Assembly (NCBI RefSeq): GCF_003334305.1
Contig: NZ_QOWS01000033.1
DNA: 35,452 nucleotides
Source: Escherichia coli
GTDB lineage: Bacteria > Pseudomonadota > Gammaproteobacteria > Enterobacterales > Enterobacteriaceae
Direction: 5' to 3' (one strand)
Below are positions 1 to 35,452 of the stretch, piece after piece. Position 1 is the first letter of the stretch, and each line of letters begins with the position of its first letter. The position numbers and the translations under genes are program-made. A model generated the notes under the pieces. The model was not told the DNA's origin and did no database searches. It saw only the letters and a list, made by a program, of their open reading frames with translations.

Positions 1-2
1 TT

Positions 3-497
3 GGTTTAGGAGAAGGCTCTGCATTACCGGTTGGGGTGCCTGTTCCGTGGCCTTCAGCCACTCCGCCAACAGGCTGGCTGAAATGCAATGGTGCGGCTTT
101 TTCTGCTGAAGAATACCCGGAACTGGCAAAGGCTTACCCGACCAATAAATTGCCTGATTTACGTGGTGAGTTTATTCGTGGCTGGGATGATGAACGTGGT
201 GTGGATAGTGGGCGAACTCTGCTTTCATCGCAAGGAGATGCTATTCGAAACATTACTGGCGGTTTTGGTCAGTTGCGCGTAAACAGCGAAATTAATGCAA
301 TTGTCGATGTTCAAAGTGTGAGTGGGGCTTTTTACGGAGGTACCTCAGTCCGGAATAACATCAATGTGTCTATGACATACGCTAATGACCGAAAAATCCG
401 ACAAGATGTTCACTTCTCGGCGGCAAATGTTGTTCCAACAGCAAATGAAAATCGTCCACGTAACATCGCCTTTAATTATATTGTGAGGGCCGCATGA
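3..497 (+). CDS. Tail fibre protein, C-terminal variable part (5'-truncated by window edge; constant part lies upstream)
   Basis: Frame is open from position 3; the translation (GLGEGSALPVGVPVPW...GWLKCNGAAFSAEEYPEL...) resembles phage tail-fibre tips; the stop overlaps the start of the next gene (ATGA at 494-497). Confidence 0.65.
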   Translation, partial: GLGEGSALPVGVPVPWPSATPPTGWLKCNGAAFSAEEYPELAKAYPTNKLPDLRGEFIRGWDDERGVDSGRTLLSSQGDAIRNITGGFGQLRVNSEINAIVDVQSVSGAFYGGTSVRNNINVSMTYANDRKIRQDVHFSAANVVPTANENRPRNIAFNYIVRAA

Positions 498-1102
498 TGA
501 ATAAAGCTGTATTAAATAGCAAACTCATTGCCATAAAAGCGGGAGACATTATCATTTATAATTATGATGGTGAAACGCGGGAATATATTTCTACATCAAC
601 TGAATATCTCGCTGTCGGCGTCGGTATCCCGGCATGTTCTTGTTTAGATGCTCCGGGCTCAAACAAAGCTGGTTATGCAATTTGTCGTTCTGTAGATTTA
701 AACTCATGGGAATATGTGCCAGACCATCGCGGTGAAGTTGTCTATAGTACCGAAACGGGAGATACCAAAGAAATCACAGCTCCGGGTGATTACCCTGAAA
801 ATACAACCATTATCGCCCCATTAACGCCATACGATAAATGGGATGGTGAGAAATGGGTGACCGATACTGAGGCACAGCATAGCGCCGCAGTAGACGCGGC
901 AGAAGCACAGCGTCAGTCACTGATTGATGCTGCAATGGCTTCCATCAGTCTGATTCAGCTGAAATTACAGGCCGGACGGAAGTTGATGCAGGCAGAAACA
1001 ACCCGGCTTAACGCCGTGCTGGATTACATTGACGCGGTGACGGCAACAGATACCAGCACCGCGCCTGATATTATTTGGCCTGTATTCCCTGAGACTGATT
1101 AA
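494..1102 (+). CDS. Tail fibre assembly chaperone (Tfa / P2 G-like)
   Basis: 202-aa ORF immediately after the tail-fibre gene with start/stop overlap; position and size fit a tail fibre assembly protein. Confidence 0.65.
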   Translation: MMNKAVLNSKLIAIKAGDIIIYNYDGETREYISTSTEYLAVGVGIPACSCLDAPGSNKAGYAICRSVDLNSWEYVPDHRGEVVYSTETGDTKEITAPGDYPENTTIIAPLTPYDKWDGEKWVTDTEAQHSAAVDAAEAQRQSLIDAAMASISLIQLKLQAGRKLMQAETTRLNAVLDYIDAVTATDTSTAPDIIWPVFPETD

Positions 1103-1292
1103 CCTCAATTAGTATTGGTTCGCCTTTCTCATTAATTGTTAGCTCCATGCCCTGAGGAATTTCTGTCATAGTAAAAAACCAGTTGTCCTCCGGTAATTCA
1201 ATAGCCCCGGTCACGTCATGAAGACCGGGGATTACTTCAGTCAAAGTAACTGGATTAAACAGGCGCACAATAAACCCTCCAGGAAAAAGCAT
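1071..1292 (-). CDS. Alternative (inverted-orientation) short tail fibre assembly protein
   Basis: Minus-strand ORF convergent with the plus-strand assembly gene, downstream of the minus-strand fibre cassette; start placed at an internal Met; arrangement mirrors Mu G-segment / e14 cassettes. Confidence 0.35.
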   Translation of the reverse strand: MLFPGGFIVRLFNPVTLTEVIPGLHDVTGAIELPEDNWFFTMTEIPQGMELTINEKGEPILIEVNQSQGIQAK

Positions 1293-1596
1293 TTGATGAT
1301 GGTCTGCCGTCGTACATCTGGCAGCGGGCATAAAAGCCGGTATTTGTTACCTGATCATCCACGATCATTGAAACATGAACATTATTAGGTGTGCTCTCGT
1401 AATCCGTTCTTATTCTTTCCGCGATACTGATAAAACGTGAAAGTTTAGGCAGTGCAATTGGGTAAACAACTTTAGCCAGTCCATTATCATTAGATCCACC
1501 GGTTCCAAATACTTCTATTGCACCGTCTGACCAGCGTATCCATGCACCATTGGCATTAGCTCCTCGCTGAATGACATATCTGGCTTCTCCCAAACC
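1255..1596 (-). CDS. Alternative tail-fibre C-terminal cassette, promoterless, expressed only after inversion
   Basis: Minus-strand frame encodes ...VGLGEARYVIQRGANANGAWIRW...; the VGLGE junction matches the GLGE junction at the window start; the Met codons at 1638 lie outside the inverted repeat and are probably incidental. Confidence 0.5.
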   Translation of the reverse strand, partial: GLGEARYVIQRGANANGAWIRWSDGAIEVFGTGGSNDNGLAKVVYPIALPKLSRFISIAERIRTDYESTPNNVHVSMIVDDQVTNTGFYARCQMYDGRPSSNAFSWRVYCAPV

Positions 1597-1610
1597 AACG
1601 TTTAAGAAAA
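1585..1610. repeat. Invertase crossover site (hix/gix-like), right end of invertible segment; partner half-site at 1-14
   Basis: 1585-1598 TTCTCCCAAACCAA is the reverse complement of window positions 1-14 (TTGGTTTAGGAGAA) with one mismatch; 1585-1610 has the form TTCTCCCAAACC-AA-CGTTTAAGAAAA, resembling the 12-2-12 Hin/Gin crossover sites. Confidence 0.55.
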
Positions 1611-1659
1611 TGCAGAGGTAACAGCTAACTGGCATCATCTCCGGTTTTTATTCAGGGGG

Positions 1660-2232
1660 ATGATCATGCTTATTGGCTATGTACGCGTGTCAACAAATGA
1701 CCAGAACACCGATTTGCAACGTAATGCACTGAACTGCGCGGGATGTGAGCAGATTTTTGAGGACAAAATCAGTGGCACTAAGTCCGACAGACCGGGGCTG
1801 AAAAAACTACTCAGGACACTATCGGCAGGAGACACGCTGGTTGTCTGGAAGCTGGACAGGTTGGGGCGCAGTATGCGGCATCTTGTTACGCTGATAGAAG
1901 AGTTGCGCCAGCGTGGTGTGAATTTCAGAAGCCTGACTGACAGTATTGATACCAGTACCCCAATGGGTCGTTTCTTTTTTCATGTCATGGGTGCCCTGGC
2001 TGAAATGGAACGCGAACTGATAGTTGAACGTACCAGGGCAGGGCTGGCTGCAGCTCGTGCCAAAGGCAGAGTAGGTGGACGCCGTCCTAAGTTGACCACC
2101 GAACAGTGGGCACAGATTGGGCGTTTACTCGAGGCCGGAGAATCAAGACAGCGTATTGCACTGATTTTTGATGTAGGCGTTTCTACCATTTATAGAAAAT
2201 TTCCGGCAAATAAGATCAATGAATCCCCCTGA
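1660..2232 (+). CDS. Serine DNA invertase (Pin/Gin/Hin/Cin family)
   Basis: N-terminus IGYVRVSTNDQ with the catalytic Ser context, a resolvase-type catalytic domain and a C-terminal HTH (GVSTIYRKF); lies directly beside the right crossover site. Confidence 0.85.
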   Translation: MIMLIGYVRVSTNDQNTDLQRNALNCAGCEQIFEDKISGTKSDRPGLKKLLRTLSAGDTLVVWKLDRLGRSMRHLVTLIEELRQRGVNFRSLTDSIDTSTPMGRFFFHVMGALAEMERELIVERTRAGLAAARAKGRVGGRRPKLTTEQWAQIGRLLEAGESRQRIALIFDVGVSTIYRKFPANKINESP

Positions 2233-2374
2233 ATCAGCATTATGTTGATTATCCCTGCAAGCAGACAAATACCGTTATTTTGTGTGAATAACGACACAAC
2301 TGCGCTTAGCTGTTTGTCAGGCACAATCACTTCAACATAGGGCGAAGCCTAATCCAATCAGGAGGTTCGCCACT

Positions 2375-3547
2375 ATGGCTCAGGATTACCACCACGGGGT
2401 GCGCGTTGTTGAAGTCAACGAAGGCACCCGATCTATTACCACGGTGAGCACCGCCATCGTGGGTATGGTCTGCACGGGCGATGATGCCGATGCAAAAATG
2501 TTTCCTCTTAATAAACCCGTGCTGATCACTGATGTGCTGACTGCCAGCGGTAAAGCGGGTGAGTCAGGTACTCTGGCCCGTTCGCTGGATGCCATCGCTG
2601 ACCAGGCAAAACCCGTGACCATTGTTGTGCGTGTGCCGCAGGGTGAAACGGAAGACGAAACCACGACCAATATCATCGGCGCAGTGACTGCTGAAGGTAA
2701 AAAAACAGGTATGAAAGCCCTGTTATCTGCCCAGTCACAGCTCGGCGTTAAACCGCGCATTCTCGGCGTGCCAGGCCACGACACCAAGGCGGTAGCTACT
2801 GAGTTGCTGAGCGTGGCGCAAAGCCTGCGTGGATTTGCTTACCTGTCAGCGTATGGCTGCAAGACAGTGCAGGAGGCGATCACTTACCGCGAAAACTTCA
2901 GCCAGCGCGAAGGGATGCTGATCTGGCCTGACTTTACTGGCTGGGACACGGTGCTGAATGCCGAAGCAACGGCATATGCCACCGCCCGTGCGCTTGGTCT
3001 GCGCGCCAAAATTGACGAGCAGACCGGATGGCACAAAAGCCTGTCCAACGTGGGCGTGAACGGTGTCACCGGAATTTCTGCAGATGTGTTCTGGGATCTG
3101 CAGGACCCGGCAACCGATGCAGGTCTGCTGAACCAGAACGACGTCACCACGCTTGTGCGTAAAGACGGTTTCCGCTTCTGGGGTTCCCGCTGCCTGAGTG
3201 ATGACCCGCTCTTTGCCTTCGAAAACTACACCCGCACGGCGCAGGTGCTGATGGACACGATGGCAGAAGCACACATGTGGGCGGTGGATAAACCGCTTAA
3301 CCCGTCGCTGGCCCGCGACATTATCGAAGGTATCCGCGCCAAAATGCGCAGCCTGGTCAGTCAGGGCTATCTCATTGGTGGTGATTGCTGGCTGGATGAG
3401 TCGGTGAACGACAAAGACACGCTGAAAGCCGGAAAACTCACCATCGACTACGACTACACGCCAGTGCCGCCACTTGAAAACCTGATGCTGCGTCAGCGCA
3501 TCACCGATCAGTACCTGGTGAATTTCGCCAGCCAGGTCAGCGCGTAA
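2375..3547 (+). CDS. Contractile tail sheath protein (P2 FI-like)
   Basis: 390-aa ORF first in the conserved FI-FII-E-T-U-D order; size and position fit the sheath. Confidence 0.8.
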
Positions 3548-3556
3548 GGGGACAAC

Positions 3557-4072
3557 ATGGCATTACCACGCAAATTAAAACACCTGAACCTGTTTAACGA
3601 CGGGAACAACTGGCAGGGGATCGTTGAGTCGCTGACGCTGCCGAAATTTACCCGCAAATATGAGAAGTATCGCGGCGGCGGAATGCCGGGTGCGGTGGAT
3701 GTGGATCTGGGGCTTGATGACAGTGCGCTGGACACAGAATTTTCCATTGGTGGTACTGAATTGCTGCTGTTTAAACAGATGGGTAAAGCCACGGTGGATG
3801 GCATCCAGCTGCGCTTTACCGGCTCTATTCAGCGTGACGATACCGGGGAAGTGCAGGCCGTGGAGCTTGTCGTGCGTGGACGTCACAAAGAAGTGGATTC
3901 CGGCGAGTGGAAGACGGGCGAAAGCAACACCACCAAAGTGACCAGTACCAACAGCTACGCGAAGCTGACCATCAATGGTGAGGTGCTCTATGAAGTGGAC
4001 CTTATCAACATGGTGGAAATTGTGGACGGTGTGGACCTGATGGAAGCGCACCGCAACGCCCTCGGCCTCTGA
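3557..4072 (+). CDS. Tail tube protein (P2 FII-like)
   Basis: 171-aa ORF directly after the sheath gene. Confidence 0.8.
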   Translation: MALPRKLKHLNLFNDGNNWQGIVESLTLPKFTRKYEKYRGGGMPGAVDVDLGLDDSALDTEFSIGGTELLLFKQMGKATVDGIQLRFTGSIQRDDTGEVQAVELVVRGRHKEVDSGEWKTGESNTTKVTSTNSYAKLTINGEVLYEVDLINMVEIVDGVDLMEAHRNALGL

Positions 4073-4126
4073 TATATCTGAACGGCGCGGGATACCGCGC
4101 CAGAACCCAATTGACAGGACAGCAAA

Positions 4127-4429
4127 ATGAGCGATAAGCAGACTGAAAAGACCATTCAACTGGATACCCCCATCAAGCGCGGTAAAACAGAAATCACCGA
4201 AATTGTGCTGCGTAAACCGCAGTCCGGTGCGCTACGCGGTACACGCCTGCAGGCCATTATGGATATGGATGTAAACGCGATGATGACCGTGATCCCCCGC
4301 ATCTCCAGTCCGGCACTGACTGCACAGGAAATTGCAGAGATGGACCCGGCAGATCTCACTGCCATGTCGGTTGAGGTTGTCACTTTTTTGTTGAAGAAGT
4401 CGGTGCTTGCCGGTTTACCGACAGCCTGA
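4127..4429 (+). CDS. Tail assembly chaperone E
   Basis: 100-aa ORF between tube and tape measure; contains the slippery run TTTTTTG near its 3' end. Confidence 0.75.
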   Translation: MSDKQTEKTIQLDTPIKRGKTEITEIVLRKPQSGALRGTRLQAIMDMDVNAMMTVIPRISSPALTAQEIAEMDPADLTAMSVEVVTFLLKKSVLAGLPTA

Positions 4430-4563
4430 CGGTTGACGATCTGGTGGCAGATATCGCCACCATTTTTCACTGGCCGCCATCCGTTACTGACGTTATGCCG
4501 CTGACCGAAGTGCTGGAATGGCGGTATAAAGCGATTCAGAGAAGCGGGGCCAACGATGAGTGA
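4127..4563 (+). CDS. Tail assembly chaperone E+E' made by a programmed -1 frameshift at TTTTTTG (4384-4390)
   Basis: The -1 frame after the slippery site stays open to a TGA at 4561-4563, encoding ...ADIATIFHWPPSVTDVMPLTEVLEWRYKAIQRSGANDE and overlapping the tape-measure ATG at 4556. Confidence 0.6.
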
Positions 4564-7500
4564 TAACAACCTGCGTCTGCAGGTCATTCTTAATGCGGTT
4601 GACAAGCTCACCCGCCCATTTCGATCTGCGCAGGCCAGTTCAAGAGAACTGGCTGCTGCTGTCAAAAAATCCCGCGATGCAATAAAGCAGCTTGATCAGG
4701 CCGGGAGCAGTCTGGACAGCTTCCGAAAGCTGCAGGCAGAAAATCAGAAATTAGGCGACAGGCTGAACTATGCCCGCCAGCGTGCAAATTTGCTCAGTCA
4801 GGAACTGGGAGCGATGGGGCCGCCTTCGCAACGTCAGGTTGTTGCTCTGGGCCGTCAACGGCTGGCTGTTCAGCGCCTGGAAGAACGCCAGAAAAAGCTG
4901 CAGCAGCAGACGGCGCTTGTGCGTGCTGAACTGTACCGGGCGGGAATTTCTGCGAAAGACGATGCGGGAGCAACTGCCCGTTTAGCCCGTGAAACATCAC
5001 GTTATAACCAGGAACTTTCGAAACAGGAGGCGCGGCTGAAGCGACTGGGGGAAGCTCAGCGCAGGATGAATGCAGCGCGTGCCAGTTATGCCCGTTCGCT
5101 GGAGGTGCGTGATCGTATTGCAGGTGCCGGAGCCACCACCACGGCTGCAGGGCTGGCAATGGGTGCGCCAGTGATGGCGGCAGTAAAAAGCTATACCAGC
5201 ATGGAAGATGCCATGAAAGGTGTGGCAAAGCAGGTCAATGGTCTGCGTGACGATAATGGCAACCGCACTGCACGTTTTTATGAAATGCAGGATGCCATCA
5301 AGGCTGCCAGCGAACAGTTGCCGATGGAAAACGGTGCGGTGGACTTCGCTGCACTGGTTGAAGGTGGTGCGCGCATGAACGTCGCAAACCCTGACGACAG
5401 CTGGGAAGATCAGAAACGTGACCTGCTGGCCTTCGCCAGTACGGCAGCAAAGGCGGCAACAGCCTTTGAGCTGCCAGCGGATGAACTGTCAGAAAGTCTG
5501 GGGAAAATCGCCCAGCTCTACAAAATCCCCACCCGCAATATTGAACAGCTCGGTGATGCGCTGAACTATCTGGATGATAACGCCATGTCGAAAGGGGCAG
5601 ACATCATTGATGTGATGCAACGTCTGGGCGGTGTGGCTGACCGTCTGGATTATCGTAAAGCGGCGGCGCTGGGTTCCACCTTCCTGACACTGGGCGCTGC
5701 GCCGGAGGTTGCAGCCAGTGCAGCAAACGCGATGGTGCGTGAATTGTCCATTGCCACCATGCAAAGCAAGAGTTTCTTTGAAGGGATGAATCTGCTGAAA
5801 CTCAATCCTGAAGTGATTGAAAAGCAGATGACGAAGGATGCGATGGGAACCATCCAGCGCGTGCTGGAGAAGGTAAACGCGCTGCCGCAGGACAAGCGCC
5901 TGTCTGCCATGACTATGTTGTTTGGTAAAGAGTTTGGCGATGACGCGGCGAAACTGGCAAACAACCTGCCGGAACTGCAGCGTCAGTTAAAACTGACAGC
6001 GGGCAATGATGCGCTTGGCTCCATGCAGAAAGAATCCGACATTAACAAGGATTCACTTTCTGCGCAGTGGTTGCTGGTCAAAACCGGAGCGCAGAACACC
6101 TTCAGCAGCCTGGGCGAAACGCTGCGCCAGCCGCTGATGGATATTCTGTACACGGTGAAAAGCGTCACGGGGGCGTTGCGTCGCTGGGTGGAAGCTAACC
6201 CGGAACTGACAGGCACACTGATGAAAGCATCGGCTGTTGTGGCTGCGGTTACCGTCGGCCTCGGCACCTTAGCGGTGGCGCTGGCTGCAGTGCTGGGGCC
6301 GCTGGCAGTGATCCGTCTGGGATTCTCTGTGTTGGGTATCAAAACGTTATCTTCCGTTACGGCAGCAGTAACTCGAACCAGCAGCGCGTTGTCCTGGCTG
6401 GCTGGCGCACCACTGGCACTGCTGCGACGCGGGCTTGCTTCATCGGGCAACGCCGCAGGTTTACTTACTGCGCCGTTGTCGTCTTTGCGCCGCACGGCAT
6501 CACTGACGGGAAATGTCCTGAAAACTGTAGCAGGTGCGCCGGTTGCACTTTTGCGGTCTGGATTATCCGGTTTACGTGCGGTTGCTGTGATGTTTATGAA
6601 TCCACTGGCAGCACTACGCGGCGGGCTGGCTGCCGCAGGCACGGTGCTGCGAGTACTGGCATCTGGTCCACTGGCGATGTTGCGCGTTGCCCTGTATGCC
6701 GTATCTGGTCTGTTAGGTGCTCTGCTCAGTCCGATAGGTCTTGTGGTTACTGCACTGGCGGGTGTGGCACTGGTTGTCTGGAAATACTGGCAACCCATCA
6801 CCGCATTTCTCGGTGGCGTGGTGGAAGGATTCAAAGCGGCGGCAGGTCCCATCAGTGCAGCGTTCGAACCGCTTAAGCCTGTGTTCCAGTGGATTGGTGA
6901 CAAAGTGCAGGCGCTGTGGGGCTGGTTTACTGATCTGCTGACGCCCGTTAAGTCGACTTCTGCCGAACTGCAGAGCGCAGCGGCAATGGGGCGACGATTC
7001 GGGGAGGCACTGGCGGAAGGGCTGAATATGGTCATGCATCCGCTGGACTCCCTGAAATCCGGCGTTTCCTGGTTGCTGGAGAAGCTCGGCATTATCAGTA
7101 AAGAGGCCGCAAAGGCAAAACTGCCGGAAAGCGTGACGCGTCAGCAACCTGCGACGGTGAATGCAGACGGTAAAGTGATGATGCCATCGGGTGGTTTTCC
7201 GTCATGGGGATATGGCTTTGCGGGGATGTATGACAGCGGCGGCTATATCCCGCGCGGGCAGTTTGGCATCGTCGGTGAAAACGGGCCGGAAATTGTTAAC
7301 GGCCCGGCAAATGTGACCAGCCGGAGAAATACAGCTGCACTGGCTGCCGTTGTTGCCGGAATGATGGGCGTTGCTGCCGCGCCTGCAGAGCTTCCACCGT
7401 TGCACCCTTTGGCACTTCCCGCGAAAGGCGGCGAAGCGATGGTGAGTCGTGCAGCCACTGTGCCGCCCGTTCAACGGATTGAGGCACCGATGCAGATCAT

Positions 7501-7633
7501 CATTCAGACGCAGCCAGGACAAAGTGCGCAGGATATTGCGCGGGAGGTGGCCCGCCAGCTTGATGAACGTGAACGCAGGCTGAAGGCAAAAGCCAGGAGT
7601 AACTACAGCGATCAGGGGGGATACGACGCATGA
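4556..7633 (+). CDS. Tail tape measure protein (P2 T-like)
   Basis: 1025-aa ORF with a coiled-coil-like N-terminal region, central hydrophobic Ala/Leu/Gly repeats and the canonical position after E/E'. Confidence 0.85.
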   Translation: MSDNNLRLQVILNAVDKLTRPFRSAQASSRELAAAVKKSRDAIKQLDQAGSSLDSFRKLQAENQKLGDRLNYARQRANLLSQELGAMGPPSQRQVVALGRQRLAVQRLEERQKKLQQQTALVRAELYRAGISAKDDAGATARLARETSRYNQELSKQEARLKRLGEAQRRMNAARASYARSLEVRDRIAGAGATTTAAGLAMGAPVMAAVKSYTSMEDAMKGVAKQVNGLRDDNGNRTARFYEMQDAIKAASEQLPMENGAVDFAALVEGGARMNVANPDDSWEDQKRDLLAFASTAAKAATAFELPADELSESLGKIAQLYKIPTRNIEQLGDALNYLDDNAMSKGADIIDVMQRLGGVADRLDYRKAAALGSTFLTLGAAPEVAASAANAMVRELSIATMQSKSFFEGMNLLKLNPEVIEKQMTKDAMGTIQRVLEKVNALPQDKRLSAMTMLFGKEFGDDAAKLANNLPELQRQLKLTAGNDALGSMQKESDINKDSLSAQWLLVKTGAQNTFSSLGETLRQPLMDILYTVKSVTGALRRWVEANPELTGTLMKASAVVAAVTVGLGTLAVALAAVLGPLAVIRLGFSVLGIKTLSSVTAAVTRTSSALSWLAGAPLALLRRGLASSGNAAGLLTAPLSSLRRTASLTGNVLKTVAGAPVALLRSGLSGLRAVAVMFMNPLAALRGGLAAAGTVLRVLASGPLAMLRVALYAVSGLLGALLSPIGLVVTALAGVALVVWKYWQPITAFLGGVVEGFKAAAGPISAAFEPLKPVFQWIGDKVQALWGWFTDLLTPVKSTSAELQSAAAMGRRFGEALAEGLNMVMHPLDSLKSGVSWLLEKLGIISKEAAKAKLPESVTRQQPATVNADGKVMMPSGGFPSWGYGFAGMYDSGGYIPRGQFGIVGENGPEIVNGPANVTSRRNTAALAAVVAGMMGVAAAPAELPPLHPLALPAKGGEAMVSRAATVPPVQRIEAPMQIIIQTQPGQSAQDIAREVARQLDERERRLKAKARSNYSDQGGYDA

Positions 7634-8115
7634 TGATGGTGCTGGGATTGTACGTGTTTATGCTGCGCACCGTGCCGTATCAGGAGCTGCAGTATCAACG
7701 CAGCTGGCGACATGCGGCAAACAGCCGGGTAAACCGACGTCCGTCCACGCAGTTTCTGGGACCGGACAACGACATGCTGACGCTTTCCGGTGTTCTTATG
7801 CCGGAGATAACAGGTGGCAGGCTGTCGTTGCTGGCACTGGAGCAGATGGCAGAACAGGGGAAAGCATGGCCCCTGATTGAAGGCAGCGGCACGATTTATG
7901 GCATGTATGTGATTGAGGGACTGAATCAGACTAAAACGGAGTTTTTCCGCGACGGTATGCCGCGCCGGATTGAGTTCACCCTGTCGCTCAAACGGGTGGA
8001 TGAATCCCTGTCCGATATGTTCGGTGATCTCAGTGCGCAACTGAATAATCTGCAGGAAACGGCAACGTCTGCCTTAAGCGATATCAGTAAAACGGTGGGA
8101 GGGCTGCTGTCGTGA
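7630..8115 (+). CDS. Tail protein U-like
   Basis: 161-aa ORF whose start overlaps the tape-measure stop; position matches P2 gene U. Confidence 0.75.
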   Translation: MMMVLGLYVFMLRTVPYQELQYQRSWRHAANSRVNRRPSTQFLGPDNDMLTLSGVLMPEITGGRLSLLALEQMAEQGKAWPLIEGSGTIYGMYVIEGLNQTKTEFFRDGMPRRIEFTLSLKRVDESLSDMFGDLSAQLNNLQETATSALSDISKTVGGLLS

Positions 8116-9212
8116 ATTTCAGCTCTGAACTGCTTAACAAAAGCAACAAAACTCCGGCATTCAGCATCAGTATTGAGGGCAGGGATATCACTACTGTGCT
8201 GGATAACCGCCTGATGAGTCTGACTCTGACGGACAATCGGGGCTTTGAAGCAGACCAGCTTGATCTGGAGCTGGACGATGCCGACGGGAAAATCGTGCTG
8301 CCGCGCCGTGGTGCGGTCATTACGCTGGCGCTGGGCTGGAAGGGGCAGCCGCTTTTCCCGAAAGGGGCATTCACGGTGGACGAGATTGAACACACTGGCG
8401 CACCGGACCGCCTGACTATCCGGGCGCGAAGTGCTGATTTTCGGGAAACGCTGAATACCCGCCGTGAAAAATCGTGGCACAAGACCACCATTGGGGAAGT
8501 GGTGAAGGAGATAGCCGCGCGGCACAAGCTGAAGATGGTACTGGGTAAAGACCTGTCGGATAAGCTCGTGGAGCATATAGACCAGACTAATGAGAGTGAC
8601 GGTAGTTTTCTGATGCGGCTGGCGCGCCAGTACGGTGCTATTGCGTCGGTGAAAAATGGCAATCTGTTATTCATCCGGCAGGGACAGGGCAAAAGTGCCA
8701 GCGGTAAACCACTGCCGGTGATCACTATCACACGTAAGGACGGCGACAGTCACCGCTTTACCCTGGCAGATCGCGGAGCCTATACGGGCATAATTGCCAG
8801 CTGGTTGCATACCCGCGAACCCGCGAAGAAAGAAAGCACCACGGTGAAGCGTAAGCGCAGGACTAAGAAGCAGAAGAAAGAGCCGGAAGCGAAGCAGGGC
8901 GATTACCTGGTGGGTACGGATGAAAACGTGCTGGTACTTAATCGCACTTATGCCAACCGGAGCAACGCTGAACGGGCAGCGAAAATGCAGTGGGAACGCC
9001 TGCAACGCGGCGTTGCGTCATTCTCGCTACAACTGGCGGAAGGGCGGGCAGATCTCTACACGGAAATGCCAGTGAAAGTCAGTGGCTTTAAACAGCCGAT
9101 AGATGATGCGGAATGGACCATTACGACTCTGACACATACCGTCAGCCCGGATAATGGTTTTACGACCAGTCTTGAGCTTGAAGTGAAGGTTGATGATCTC
9201 GAAATGGAATGA
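8112..9212 (+). CDS. Tail protein D-like (late tail gene)
   Basis: 366-aa ORF with a GTG start overlapping the U stop; position matches P2 gene D. Confidence 0.75.
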   Translation: MNFSSELLNKSNKTPAFSISIEGRDITTVLDNRLMSLTLTDNRGFEADQLDLELDDADGKIVLPRRGAVITLALGWKGQPLFPKGAFTVDEIEHTGAPDRLTIRARSADFRETLNTRREKSWHKTTIGEVVKEIAARHKLKMVLGKDLSDKLVEHIDQTNESDGSFLMRLARQYGAIASVKNGNLLFIRQGQGKSASGKPLPVITITRKDGDSHRFTLADRGAYTGIIASWLHTREPAKKESTTVKRKRRTKKQKKEPEAKQGDYLVGTDENVLVLNRTYANRSNAERAAKMQWERLQRGVASFSLQLAEGRADLYTEMPVKVSGFKQPIDDAEWTITTLTHTVSPDNGFTTSLELEVKVDDLEME

Positions 9213-9302
9213 TTCTTCACAATGGAGAACTTTTAAGTTTGAAAAATGGAATAATGCGATATCATTATTGTGAATTTAGCAAAAATGGGGAGAACTCGAA
9301 AA

Positions 9303-9521
9303 ATGATGATTTGCCCACTGTGTGGAAGTGCCGCCCATACTCGCAGCAGTTTTCAGGTATCTTCATTGACCAAAGAGCGTTACAACCAGTGCCAGAACAT
9401 TAACTGCAGCCATACTTTTGTTACCCATGAAACTTTTGTTCGTTCGATTGCAACGCCAAAAGAGTCAAATCCGGTTCAGCCGCATCCTCATAAATTTAAA
9501 CAGGTGGGTTTGCCGATTTAA
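9303..9521 (+). CDS. ogr: Ogr/Delta-type zinc-finger late transcription activator
   Basis: CPLCGSAAHTRSS...YNQCQNINCSHTF is a C4 zinc-finger pattern like P2 Ogr; start placed at the Met preceding CPLC, with a GGGAGA Shine-Dalgarno upstream. Confidence 0.75.
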   Translation: MMICPLCGSAAHTRSSFQVSSLTKERYNQCQNINCSHTFVTHETFVRSIATPKESNPVQPHPHKFKQVGLPI

Positions 9522-9585
9522 ATGGCGACATAACTACATGATTTAAAACTATACTTTTCTATAAGTTGAGGTTAAATTAACAATG

Positions 9586-9762
9586 CCTGACGTTAGCGGG
9601 GATTTATCCCCACTCCGTAGATATGTAGTTTGTCGCTTTGCGACTGCGGACCGATTACCTGATTGCCATGTAATCGGACGCCGACTTGTTAAGCTTTCTG
9701 GGCTAACTGGTTGTTATTTTTTATTTAGTTAGGGCCATGCGCTTGCGCTAAGAGACGTCAGG
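9586..9762 (+). ncRNA. Candidate structured non-coding RNA upstream of the reverse transcriptase (retron msr/msd-like or DRT-type ncRNA)
   Basis: Long-range inverted repeat CCTGACGTTAGCG (9586-9598) with CGCTA-AGAG-ACGTCAGG (9746-9762) enclosing hairpins at 9598-9611, 9632-9644 and 9651-9677; no convincing ORF inside. Confidence 0.4.
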
Positions 9763-9782
9763 TATCTATGGAGGAACAAGTT

Positions 9783-9956
9783 ATGGATACAAACGAACTT
9801 GGCTTAGTTAAGGCGCGTGTTGAACTGATCACCGCTATGCTCAAATGCGCAACCGCGTTTGTTGGCTTAGTTGGTGCGGTTTACGCCGTTCTTAACATGG
9901 CCTTCAACTACAACAATTTAACTCATGACAATAGAAGTTCAAAGGTGGGAAGATAA
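9783..9956 (+). CDS. Small hypothetical protein with one hydrophobic helix (possible small effector, or frameshifted RT N-terminus)
   Basis: Only open frame across 9768-9956; GGAGGA Shine-Dalgarno about 7 nt before the ATG at 9783; hydrophobic stretch AFVGLVGAVYAVLNMAF; overlaps the RT start by about 30 nt in another frame. Confidence 0.3.
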   Translation: MDTNELGLVKARVELITAMLKCATAFVGLVGAVYAVLNMAFNYNNLTHDNRSSKVGR

Positions 9957-10698
9957 ATTTGAGATTAAGCCCGGGGTTTGGGTTTATGTCCCAAGCGTTG
10001 AGGCACGTAAAGTCGGAGGGAAGATACTTCAGGCTGTCAGAAACAAGTGGATTCCGCCACTCTATTTTTACCATCTAAGAACTGGTGGGCATCTTAAAGC
10101 TGCCAGATTACACTTAAAAAGTGATTTTTTTGCCGTTGTTGATATTAAACAATTTTTTCAGTCAACGAGCCGTAGTCGTATCACCCGTGATCTAAAGAGC
10201 TACTTCACCTATTCTCAAGCGCGGGAAATCTCAACATTTTCAACTGTAAGAAACTTGTCCCATAGTCCACATAAGCATGTCCTCCCTTTTGGTTTTGTTC
10301 AATCTCCAATACTTGCAACCCTCTGCTTAGATAAAAGTTATTTTGGTAGCTTACTACGCCGATTGAACAAACATCATGATCTCAAGCTAAGTGTGTTTAT
10401 GGATGATGTGATCATCTCGTCAAACGATTTGGCCCAATTACAAGCGGCTTACGACGAAGCACTAGTGGCAATGCGTAAATCTGGTTATCAAGCCAACATG
10501 AGTAAAACTCAGGCACCATCGTCAAAGATTAGCGTGTTTAATTTAACTTTGAGTAAGGGAGTTATGAAAGTCACATCTCAGAAAATGAGTGACTTCCTGA
10601 TTGATTTCTATTCAAGCAATTATGAGCCGCACAGAATAGGGGTCAAAAACTACGTCGAAGCTGTTAATCCAGGGCAAGCGAAACTCTTTAAGTTGTAA
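9925..10698 (+). CDS. Compact reverse transcriptase (retron/Abi/DRT-like RT domain)
   Basis: RT motifs readable in the translation: fingers FEIKPGVWVYVPS, motif A VVDIKQFFQS, motif B LPFGFVQSPILATLCL, catalytic YxDD box FMDD; AT-rich with rare codons (AGA, ATA, CTA). Confidence 0.75.
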   Translation: MTIEVQRWEDKFEIKPGVWVYVPSVEARKVGGKILQAVRNKWIPPLYFYHLRTGGHLKAARLHLKSDFFAVVDIKQFFQSTSRSRITRDLKSYFTYSQAREISTFSTVRNLSHSPHKHVLPFGFVQSPILATLCLDKSYFGSLLRRLNKHHDLKLSVFMDDVIISSNDLAQLQAAYDEALVAMRKSGYQANMSKTQAPSSKISVFNLTLSKGVMKVTSQKMSDFLIDFYSSNYEPHRIGVKNYVEAVNPGQAKLFKL

Positions 10699-10806
10699 TT
10701 GCGATCGCATGTAGTAGCAACTGGGCTTGACTGAATGTCTGCCGCCATTTTGCCGCCACTACTAAAGAAAAAAGGGCTACGCTTTCACGTAACCCCTTGA
10801 TTTATT

Positions 10807-11169
10807 TGGTGGAGCTGGCGGGAGTTGAACCCGCGTCCGAAATTCCTACATCCTCGGTACTACATGCTTAGTCAGTCTTTACATTCGCTTGCCAGCTGCG
10901 GACGGACACGCCACTAACAAACTAGCCTGATTAAGTTTTAACGCTTCAACCCCAGGCAGGGCTTCCACGCGATCTCTTTTGGGTTTGACCTCTCTTGATC
11001 CCCGTCCTAAGAGCGGAGGCTAGGGAGAGAGGGCTCTAAGCAGGTTATTAAGCTGCTAAAGCGTAGTTTTCGTCGTTTGCGACTATTTTTTGCGGCTTTT
11101 TACGAGGCCAACCGCCCCTCGGCATGCACCTTGGGTTTCGCAAATCCCGTCGAATCCAGAATCAGCCCC
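10807..11169 (-). ncRNA. ssrA: tmRNA (SsrA)
   Basis: Reverse complement matches E. coli tmRNA from GGGGCTGATTCTGG (5' end at 11169) to GCTCCACCA (3' end at 10807), including the tag-coding region. Confidence 0.95.
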
Positions 11170-29039: not shown

Positions 29040-29075
29040 ATAAAAAAGGCCCCCCGATTTGGGAGGCCTTATTGT
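29040..29075 (-). terminator. pheA attenuator terminator hairpin
   Basis: On the minus strand GGCCTCCC-AAATC-GGGGGGCC followed by a T-run, between pheL and pheA. Confidence 0.6.
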
Positions 29076-29116
29076 TCGTCTTCGCATTCTGTTTCACACG
29101 ACGAAACGCCTCCCAT

Positions 29117-29164
29117 TCAGGGGAAGGTAAAAAAGAATGCGAAGAAAAACGGTGTGTGTTTCAT
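29117..29164 (-). CDS. pheL: pheA leader peptide, 15 aa, Phe-rich ([15 protein letters not shown])
   Basis: Direct translation of the reverse complement gives seven Phe codons in 15. Confidence 0.85.
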   Translation of the reverse strand: [15 protein letters not shown]

Positions 29165-29267
29165 GTTTGTTTCCTTAAGTGACTTTAGTACAGTACCCGT
29201 ACTGTTTTCACGCTGTCAACAAAAAACGCGCCCGAAGGCGCGTTGGCGATACACTCAATATAAAGGA

Positions 29268-32460: not shown

Positions 32461-32522
32461 CCTAAAGAATCAAGACGATCCGGTACGCGTGATTTTCTTT
32501 TCACATTAATCTGGTCAATAAC

Positions 32523-32550
32523 CTTGAATAATTGAGGGATGACCTCATTT
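32523..32550 (+). promoter_or_regulatory. Sigma-32 heat-shock promoter of clpB
   Basis: CTTGAA (32523-32528), 14-nt spacer, CCTCATTT (32543-32550), resembling the sigma-32 -35/-10 consensus. Confidence 0.5.
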
Positions 32551-32589
32551 AATCTCCAGTAGCAACTTTGATCCGTTATGGGAGGAGTT

Positions 32590-35163
32590 ATGCGTCTGGA
32601 TCGTCTTACTAATAAATTCCAGCTTGCTCTTGCCGATGCCCAATCACTTGCACTCGGGCACGACAACCAATTTATCGAACCACTTCATTTAATGAGCGCC
32701 CTGCTGAATCAGGAAGGGGGTTCGGTTAGTCCTTTATTAACATCCGCTGGCATCAATGCTGGCCAGTTGCGCACAGATATCAATCAGGCATTAAATCGTT
32801 TACCGCAGGTTGAAGGTACTGGTGGTGATGTCCAGCCATCACAGGATCTGGTGCGCGTTCTTAATCTTTGCGACAAGCTGGCGCAAAAACGTGGTGATAA
32901 CTTTATCTCGTCAGAACTGTTCGTTCTGGCGGCACTTGAGTCTCGCGGCACGCTGGCCGACATCCTGAAAGCAGCAGGGGCGACCACCGCCAACATTACT
33001 CAAGCGATTGAACAAATGCGTGGAGGTGAAAGCGTGAACGATCAAGGTGCTGAAGACCAACGTCAGGCTTTGAAAAAATATACCATCGACCTTACCGAAC
33101 GAGCCGAACAGGGCAAACTCGATCCGGTGATTGGTCGTGATGAAGAAATTCGCCGTACCATTCAGGTGCTGCAACGTCGTACTAAAAATAACCCGGTACT
33201 GATTGGTGAACCCGGCGTCGGTAAAACTGCCATCGTTGAAGGTCTGGCGCAGCGTATTATCAACGGCGAAGTGCCGGAAGGATTGAAAGGCCGCCGCGTA
33301 CTGGCGCTGGATATGGGCGCGCTGGTGGCTGGGGCGAAATATCGCGGTGAGTTTGAAGAACGTTTAAAAGGCGTGCTTAACGATCTTGCCAAACAGGAAG
33401 GCAACGTCATCCTGTTTATCGACGAATTACATACCATGGTCGGCGCGGGTAAAGCCGATGGCGCAATGGACGCCGGAAACATGCTGAAACCGGCGCTGGC
33501 GCGTGGTGAATTGCACTGCGTAGGTGCCACGACGCTTGACGAATATCGCCAGTACATTGAAAAAGATGCTGCGCTGGAACGTCGTTTCCAGAAAGTGTTT
33601 GTTGCCGAGCCTTCCGTTGAAGATACCATTGCGATTCTGCGTGGCCTGAAAGAACGTTACGAATTGCACCACCATGTGCAAATTACTGACCCGGCAATTG
33701 TTGCAGCGGCGACGTTGTCTCATCGCTACATTGCTGACCGTCAGCTGCCGGATAAAGCCATCGACCTGATCGATGAAGCAGCATCCAGCATTCGTATGCA
33801 GATTGACTCAAAACCAGAAGAACTCGACCGACTCGATCGTCGTATCATCCAGCTCAAACTGGAACAACAGGCGTTAATGAAAGAGTCTGATGAAGCCAGT
33901 AAAAAACGCCTGGATATGCTCAACGAAGAACTGAGCGACAAAGAACGTCAGTACTCCGAGTTAGAAGAAGAGTGGAAAGCAGAGAAGGCATCGCTTTCTG
34001 GTACGCAGACCATTAAAGCGGAACTGGAACAGGCGAAAATCGCTATTGAACAGGCTCGCCGTGTGGGGGACCTGGCGCGGATGTCTGAACTGCAATACGG
34101 CAAAATCCCGGAACTGGAAAAGCAACTGGAAGCCGCAACGCAGCTCGAAGGCAAAACTATGCGTCTGTTGCGTAATAAAGTGACCGATGCCGAAATTGCT
34201 GAAGTGCTGGCGCGTTGGACGGGGATTCCGGTTTCTCGCATGATGGAAAGCGAGCGCGAAAAACTGCTGCGTATGGAACAAGAACTGCACCATCGCGTCA
34301 TTGGTCAGAACGAAGCGGTTGATGCGGTATCTAACGCTATTCGCCGTAGCCGTGCGGGGTTGGCGGATCCAAATCGCCCGATTGGTTCATTCCTGTTCCT
34401 CGGCCCAACGGGTGTGGGGAAAACTGAGCTTTGTAAGGCGCTGGCGAACTTTATGTTTGATAGCGACGAGGCGATGGTCCGTATCGATATGTCCGAGTTT
34501 ATGGAGAAACACTCGGTGTCTCGTCTGGTTGGTGCGCCTCCGGGATATGTCGGTTATGAAGAAGGTGGCTACCTGACCGAAGCTGTGCGTCGTCGTCCGT
34601 ATTCCGTCATCCTGCTGGATGAAGTGGAAAAAGCGCATCCGGATGTCTTCAACATTCTGTTGCAGGTACTGGATGATGGTCGTCTGACTGACGGGCAGGG
34701 GAGAACGGTCGACTTCCGTAATACGGTTGTCATTATGACCTCTAACCTCGGTTCCGATTTGATTCAGGAACGCTTCGGTGAACTGGATTATGCGCACATG
34801 AAAGAGCTGGTGCTCGGTGTGGTAAGCCATAACTTCCGTCCGGAATTCATTAACCGTATTGATGAAGTGGTGGTCTTCCATCCGCTGGGTGAACAGCACA
34901 TTGCCTCGATTGCGCAGATTCAGTTGAAACGTCTGTACAAACGTCTGGAAGAACGTGGTTATGAAATCCACATTTCTGACGAGGCGCTGAAACTGCTGAG
35001 CGAGAACGGTTACGATCCAGTCTATGGTGCACGTCCTTTGAAACGTGCTATCCAGCAGCAGATCGAAAACCCGCTGGCACAGCAAATACTGTCTGGTGAA
35101 TTGGTTCCGGGTAAAGTGATTCGCCTGGAAGTTAATGAAGACCGGATTGTCGCCGTCCAGTAA
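32590..35163 (+). CDS. clpB: Disaggregase chaperone ClpB (Hsp100)
   Basis: 857 aa from [10 protein letters not shown]; two AAA+ modules with Walker A motifs ([16 protein letters not shown]) and a middle coiled coil. Confidence 0.95.
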
Positions 35164-35167
35164 ATGA

Positions 35168-35197
35168 TAAAACGAGCCCTTCGGGGCTCGTTTTTGT
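35168..35197 (+). terminator. Rho-independent terminator after clpB
   Basis: AAACGAGCCC-TTCG-GGGCTCGTTTTT hairpin with a T-tract. Confidence 0.7.
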
Positions 35198-35278
35198 CTA
35201 TAAGTTAGACGGAAAAGACTATATTTAAGATGTTTTGCCTGAAAAATGAGCGAACGATAAAGTTTTTATATTTTTCGC

Positions 35279-35306
35279 TTGTCAGGCCGGAATAACTCCC
35301 TATAAT
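35279..35306 (+). promoter_or_regulatory. rRNA operon P1 promoter (-35 TTGTCA, 16-bp spacer, -10 TATAAT) with an AT-rich UP element upstream
   Basis: CTTGTCAGGCCGGAATAACTCCCTATAATGCGCCACC is the characteristic rrn P1 core; an AT-rich tract precedes it at about 35240-35278. Confidence 0.7.
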
Positions 35307-35397
35307 GCGCCACCACTGACACGGAACAACGGCAAACACGCCGCCGGGTCAGCGGGGTTCTCCTGAGAATTCCGGCAGAGAAAGCAAAAATAAATGC

Positions 35398-35425
35398 TTG
35401 ACTCTGTAGCGGGAAAGCGTATTAT
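35398..35425 (+). promoter_or_regulatory. rRNA operon P2 promoter (-35 TTGACT, -10 TATTAT)
   Basis: TTGACTCTGTAGCGGGAAAGCGTATTATGCACACCCCGCGCCGCTGAG matches the rrn P2 core; the rRNA gene itself lies beyond the window. Confidence 0.65.
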
Positions 35426-35452
35426 GCACACCCCGCGCCGCTGAGAAAAAGC

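Follow-up and report, generated by a model that had tools for sequence, protein, structure and literature searches.

The 35,452-nt stretch of Escherichia coli DNA analyzed here (contig NZ_QOWS01000033.1 of RefSeq assembly GCF_003334305.1; hereafter, the window) breaks off in the intergenic region that follows the clpB gene, which raises the question of what this region controls and, if it belongs to one of the seven rRNA (rrn) operons known from strain K-12, to which of them. The initial annotation, made from the letters of the sequence alone, placed the end of the window inside an rrn control region with two promoters, P1 and P2, and assigned it, as the probable operon, to rrnG from the gene order. 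Homology and genomic context bear out the former claim and support the latter: the right end of the window almost certainly holds the region that controls the E. coli rrnG operon, in the 443 nt that separate clpB from the 16S rRNA gene rrsG. This region is already known and thoroughly characterized, to the point of being textbook biology, and the rrn P1/P2 pair is among the best-studied bacterial promoter systems. The features of the region and the differences between the window and the K-12 leaders are listed in Table 1.

Table 1. Features at the right end of the window, with the number of differences from the K-12 rrn leaders where these were counted by segment
Feature	Coordinates	Strand	Basis or remark	Differences from rrnG	Differences from rrnA/B/C	Differences from rrnD/E/H
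clpB CDS	32590..35163	+	ORF list; RefSeq annotation of strain 120899 (locus L001) and K-12; coordinate mapping			
clpB stop to before P1 -35	35164..35278			1/115	60-74	71-101
clpB intrinsic terminator	35169..35197	+	Fold and sequence			
Candidate distal Fis site GTCTATAAGTTAGAC	35196..35210 (center -112 from P1 +1)		Match to GNNYRNNWNNYRNNC			
Candidate Fis site GCCTGAAAAATGAGC	35237..35251 (center -71 from P1 +1)		Match to GNNYRNNWNNYRNNC			
P1 UP-element tract GATAAAGTTTTTATATTTTTCG	35256..35277 (-59 to -38)	+	A+T content; partial consensus match			
rrnG P1 core (-35 to predicted +1)	35279..35315	+	Promoter scan; 37/37 identity to K-12 rrnA/B/C/G P1	0/37	0/37	10-16
P1-specific leader segment between the promoters (P1 +2 to before P2 -35)	35316..35397	+	Polymorphic in rrnG alleles; here of the rrnA/B/C type	10	1	43-46
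P2 -35 to window end	35398..35452			1	rrnC, 0; rrnA/B, 1	17-18
rrnG P2 core	35398..35434	+	Promoter scan; comparison with K-12 leaders			
boxB hairpin, 5' arm and loop (GCCGCTGAGAAAAAGC...)	35437..35452	+	Extension through L001			

To identify the operon, the sequences preceding each of the seven 16S rRNA genes of K-12 were aligned with the window and its extension, and the differences were counted segment by segment. The clpB open reading frame ends with a stop codon at 35161 to 35163 on the + strand, and the rrnG leader follows immediately downstream in the same direction. The operon is assigned to rrnG because the stretch from 35164 to 35278, where the seven leaders diverge, matches rrnG alone: it is identical to K-12 rrnG at 114 of 115 positions and effectively unalignable to the six other K-12 leaders. 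The alignment with the seven leaders, which the initial annotation had suggested as a check, thus agrees with its assignment, with the P1 core shared by K-12 rrnA, rrnB, rrnC and rrnG and the upstream stretch found only in rrnG. Three elements do not vary among the seven K-12 leaders, and their spacing is fixed: the P1 -10 hexamer, the GCGCC start of the P1 discriminator, and the P2 -35 hexamer TTGACT. Like the K-12 rrnG control region (promoters rrsGp1 and rrsGp2), that of the window has clpB and its terminator upstream and, in identical genomes, the same order of rRNA genes and kgtP downstream. From 35164 through 35315, the two sequences differ at a single base (A/G at 35246), and their P2 hexamers are identical. 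Unlike K-12 rrnG, the window carries a cluster of 10 differences, including a 1-nt indel, at 35351 to 35391, between P1 and P2, and an A instead of a G in the P2 spacer at 35416, the window base being the rrnC version.

The rRNA genes themselves lie outside the window, and the body of the operon was inferred from identical genomes. In a megablast search of 5426 complete E. coli genomes, a query comprising window positions 34400 to 35452 (1053 nt) found matches in all 5426, and in 5423 of them at least 80% of the query was covered at one place. Several genomes are 100% identical to this query, the annotated feature beneath the match being clpB. One such genome is that of strain 120899. Its matching locus (L001) aligns collinearly with the window for 8053 nt, and all 26 substitutions between the two fall upstream of the final 1053 nt. 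The locus carries the gene order tyrA, pheA, pheL, raiA, bamD, rluD, yfiH, clpB, 16S, tRNA-Glu, 23S, 5S, and kgtP. The end of the window corresponds to position 8053 of this locus and the start of the 16S rRNA gene to position 8208 (window-equivalent 35607), so that the 16S gene that the initial annotation expected within a few hundred base pairs is found, in full, 155 nt past the window end, according to both the annotation and Rfam, which reports a full-length SSU match (1580.9 bits) followed by tRNA, LSU, and 5S. In K-12, clpB (b2592) adjoins rrsG (b2591), and the MG1655 annotation lists rrsG-gltW-rrlG-rrfG as the operon beside clpB, with kgtP beyond it; strain 120899 and K-12 share the single tRNA-Glu gene in the 16S-23S spacer, the lack of a distal tRNA gene, and kgtP downstream. 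Another Rfam family within the rrn transcription unit, StyR-44 (RF01830, 124.9 bits), matches L001 at 9988 to 10096 on the + strand, in the spacer, immediately ahead of the 23S rRNA gene.

One alternative is that the window carries the head of rrnG joined, through inversion or recombination, to the body of another rrn operon, in which case the downstream flank would not be the gltW...kgtP one. The rrn operons do recombine (the W3110 listing in PMC4696680 gives INV(rrnD, rrnE)), the rrnA/B/C-type stretch between P1 and P2 in the window shows that sequence has been exchanged among leaders, and no downstream sequence specific to one operon is reached within the window. Nevertheless, this arrangement is very improbable: in a genome that matches the last 1053 nt of the window without a difference, the canonical rrnG body and the kgtP flank follow, the query joining clpB to the leader is covered to at least 80% at one place in all but 3 of the 5426 genomes, and the converted patches that were seen span tens of bases rather than whole operons. 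The right end of the window is placed at the clpB-rrnG junction, which on the K-12 map lies near 2.731 Mb and reads in the opposite orientation. That the window breaks at this place is probably a consequence of the rrn operons being multicopy repeats, at which assemblies and windows commonly break.

Two features elsewhere in the window belong to the description of its gene content. The pheL attenuator (Rfam RF01859, 132 bits) is found at 29040 to 29165 on the - strand, upstream of pheA, and fits the K-12 gene order. The tmRNA gene ssrA is located at 10807 to 11169 on the - strand (RF00023, 295.8 bits), and window positions 1 to 10800 lie on its 3' side; prophages and islands often integrate at ssrA.

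Both promoters were recovered by a promoter scan on the + strand at exactly the coordinates that had been read from the sequence. P1, which matches the consensus at 11 of 12 hexamer positions, consists of the -35 hexamer TTGTCA (35279 to 35284), a suboptimal 16-nt spacer, the -10 hexamer TATAAT (35301 to 35306), and the G+C-rich discriminator GCGCCACC (35307 to 35314). P2, with 10 of 12 positions matching, consists of TTGACT (35398 to 35403), a spacer that is also 16 nt long, and TATTAT (35420 to 35425), followed by a discriminator that begins with GCACACC. Its -35 hexamer lies 119 nt from that of P1, and the tandem rrn promoters are described as being approximately 120 bp apart (PMC4696680). 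In rrnB P1, the UP element spans -60 to -40, the discriminator spans -8 to -1, and transcription starts 9 nt after the -10 hexamer (PMC7822876). Because the P1 core of the window is identical to that of rrnB P1, which initiates at an A located nine nucleotides after the -10 hexamer, transcription from P1 is predicted to start at the A at 35315, the ninth nucleotide after its own -10 hexamer; the P2 start would fall at about 35432 to 35434.

The A+T-rich tract that had been proposed as an UP element ahead of P1 is readily recognized, with 90% A+T at 35256 to 35275 compared to 49% in the whole window. Scored against the UP consensus, the tract matches at 8 of 15 positions in register, which places it in the top 5% of positions in the window, and at 10 of 15 when shifted by 1 nt (top 0.4%); it has no proximal AAAA subsite, and its sequence is identical in K-12 rrnG. 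The same count gives 12 of 15 for rrnA/B/C and 6 of 15 for rrnE/H. These comparisons delimit the likeness to rrnB P1, the model rRNA promoter examined by the Gourse laboratory and by cryo-EM (PMC7822876): the two promoters are identical from -35 through +1, and the stretch between P1 and P2 differs at 1 base, whereas the upstream sequence is unrelated, the rrnB UP element AGAAAATTATTTTAAATTTCCT matches the consensus at 12 positions and that of the window at only 8, the Fis sites lie in other sequence, and the upstream neighbor is murI rather than clpB.

The hexamers by themselves do not single out these promoters. In a comparison with 300 dinucleotide-preserving shuffles of the whole 35.4-kb window, sites matching at least 10 of 12 positions showed no enrichment (7 in the window versus 7.1 +/- 2.7 expected), there was 1 site matching at least 11 of 12 versus 0.45 expected, and a same-strand pair 30 to 200 nt apart occurred in 31 of the 300 shuffles (approximately 10%). 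The identification of P1 and P2 therefore rests on homology and context. These counts could suggest that both hexamer pairs are chance matches in A+T-rich intergenic DNA that have no promoter function, but there is practically no likelihood of that, given that the P1 core is that of the experimentally characterized rrnB P1, that the P2 segment differs from rrnB at one spacer position, that both hexamer pairs are conserved at fixed spacing in all seven K-12 leaders with the 16S rRNA gene at the expected distance, and that promoter activity of an rrnG fragment has been measured (PMC4696680). Initiation at both sites has, moreover, been published for K-12 rrnG.

The window ends within the leader itself. 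It stops in the loop of boxB, 10 nt short of boxA, with the 3' arm of boxB lying beyond its end. In L001, boxA (TGCTCTTTAACAA) occupies window-equivalent positions 35463 to 35475, starting 11 nt past the window end, and boxC (TGTGTGGG) occupies 35490 to 35497, starting 38 nt past it. Thus, of the rrn nut-like antitermination signal known from studies of the rrnG transcription antitermination complex (rrnG-TAC; PMC6614797), the window holds the 5' arm and loop of boxB; this is a fragment only, and boxA, the sole essential element, is outside. The boxB hairpin folds only marginally better than shuffles in the extended sequence (z = -1.15), a weakness that fits the view that rrn boxB is a potential hairpin that lacks a consensus and is dispensable; the consensus given for boxA is UGCUCUUUA (PMC6614797).

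Rfam has no curated family for rrn promoters or leaders, and its sole hit in this region is a subthreshold match to RF02849 (Yersinia sRNA 197), at 35232 to 35452 on the + strand (E = 6e-8, cut off by the window end). That the region encodes an sRNA of the Ysr197 family, instead of or besides the rRNA leader, is a reading that can be set aside with hardly any reservation, as the match, at 42.6 bits, falls far short of the gathering score (167), the region taken at full length from L001 is likewise below that score, and the match spans the promoters themselves; the RF02849 model probably captures the homologous Yersinia rrn promoter and leader. Two short open reading frames on the - strand (35205 to 35339 and 35300 to 35431; 43 to 44 amino acids) were likewise dismissed, since nothing corresponding to them is annotated in either K-12 or strain 120899.

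Upstream of the rrnG promoters, clpB ends with a strong intrinsic terminator, in which the stem CGAGCCC (35173 to 35179), the loop TTCG, and the stem GGGCTCG (35184 to 35190) are followed by a T-run (35191 to 35195). Its fold has an energy of -20.3 kcal/mol (z = -5.8), and none of 200 shuffles folds as well. Despite this strong fold, a simple consensus scan of the window did not list the clpB terminator, probably because the stem is extended by A/U pairs that take up the T-run. At the other end of the gene, the mechanically called clpB reading frame begins at 32578 and is thereby four codons longer than the annotated one, which has its ATG at 32590, and the sRNA RyfD (RF02768, 125 bits) is found at 32471 to 32609 on the + strand, upstream of and overlapping the clpB start, as in the K-12 annotation (ryfD, b4609).

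Counted from the P1 start, the terminator spans -143 to -119 and so overlaps what would be the far end of the activator region upstream of rrnG P1; the palindromic Fis-like match GTCTATAAGTTAGAC abuts it directly. The candidate Fis site centered at -71 coincides in position with Fis site I of rrnB P1, the one nearest to that promoter. The pattern used to find both candidates, GNNYRNNWNNYRNNC, occurs in the window at chance frequency (75 matches versus approximately 69 expected) and is too degenerate to identify sites on its own. For the rrnG promoter fragment, three Fis sites had been proposed earlier, and more than six were found by gel shift (Maeda et al. 2015; PMC4696680). The initial annotation had the control region begin at 35240; its P1 and P2 stand, but its starting point does not, as the Fis-type upstream activator region would reach back to the clpB terminator at approximately 35196.

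The layout of the region can thus be described as the clpB terminator, a Fis-type activator region, an UP element, a strong, growth-rate-regulated P1, and P2, in this order, with protein binding, start sites, and regulation at the rrnG leader predicted from its resemblance to characterized leaders. The mechanism is carried over from rrnB because the P1 core is identical to that of rrnB P1, for which the mechanism is established. At rrnB P1, binding of the RNA polymerase alpha-subunit C-terminal domains (alpha-CTDs) to the UP element raises transcription more than 30-fold, and initiation is sensitive to DksA/ppGpp, with promoter escape being favored (PMC7822876); Fis bound upstream activates P1 in fast growth, and P2 provides basal expression in slow growth and stationary phase (PMC4696680). 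By analogy, the alpha-CTDs would bind the UP element of rrnG P1, Fis bound upstream of P1 would recruit polymerase during fast growth, and P2 would keep rRNA synthesis at a basal level when cells grow slowly or are in stationary phase. The boxA of the leader recruits NusB/NusE, which assemble with NusA, NusG, S4, and SuhB into the rrn antitermination complex; this complex was studied with the rrnG leader RNA as the substrate (PMC6614797). Transcripts from both promoters are expected to read through boxB-boxA-boxC, so that the Nus/SuhB antitermination complex would be loaded before the 16S rRNA gene is reached.

The stretch between P1 and P2 is the part of the region in which the window departs most from K-12 rrnG. 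It is of the rrnA/B/C type, from which it has 1 difference (at 35370), compared to the 10 that separate it from K-12 rrnG. Sequences that are at least 99% identical to the 289-nt intergenic sequence of the window were found in 2076 of 5429 E. coli records (∼38%); most other records are 95 to 99% identical over the 289 nt, and K-12 derivatives are 96.2% identical. Six rrnG leaders were sampled and aligned, with the K-12 rrnB and rrnC rows of this alignment covering only the part from +4 of P1 onward, which does not affect the comparison between P1 and P2. The BL21 leader is of the window type, and that of strain PD23 is exactly of the rrnA/B/C type, including the CCTC just upstream of the -35 element. 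In strain S1-KEN-07-A, the 5' half of the patch is of the K-12 rrnG type and the 3' half is of the rrnA/B/C type, whereas the leaders of strains JS316 and XD35 are of the K-12 type. The promoter hexamers are unchanged in the sampled rrnG leaders except for the P2 -10 hexamer of strain ECE170 (L011), which reads TATCAT rather than TATTAT; in XD35 (L014), the first base of the P1 discriminator is A rather than G. Each of these two variants may be genuine or may stem from an error in the assembly. Judging from these alignments, the mosaic structure of the rrnG leader is suggestive of gene conversion over short tracts between rrn leaders; recombination that homogenizes rrn genes has been discussed previously (PMC4696680).

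The identification of the right end of the window as the rrnG control region matters only as annotation, and the understanding of rrn P1 and P2 is unchanged by it. The mosaic P1-P2 segment is not a discovery, but it neatly illustrates how rrn leaders evolve in concert. A more consequential but unlikely possibility is that gene conversion in the leader alters the behavior of the operon, so that rrnG expression differs between lineages. If this were true, the effect could be exerted through Fis or H-NS occupancy, through read-through from P1 to P2, or through the folding or processing of the P1-specific leader RNA, and strain-level mosaicism of the rrn leaders would then constitute a small, previously unrecognized source of variation in rRNA operon usage.
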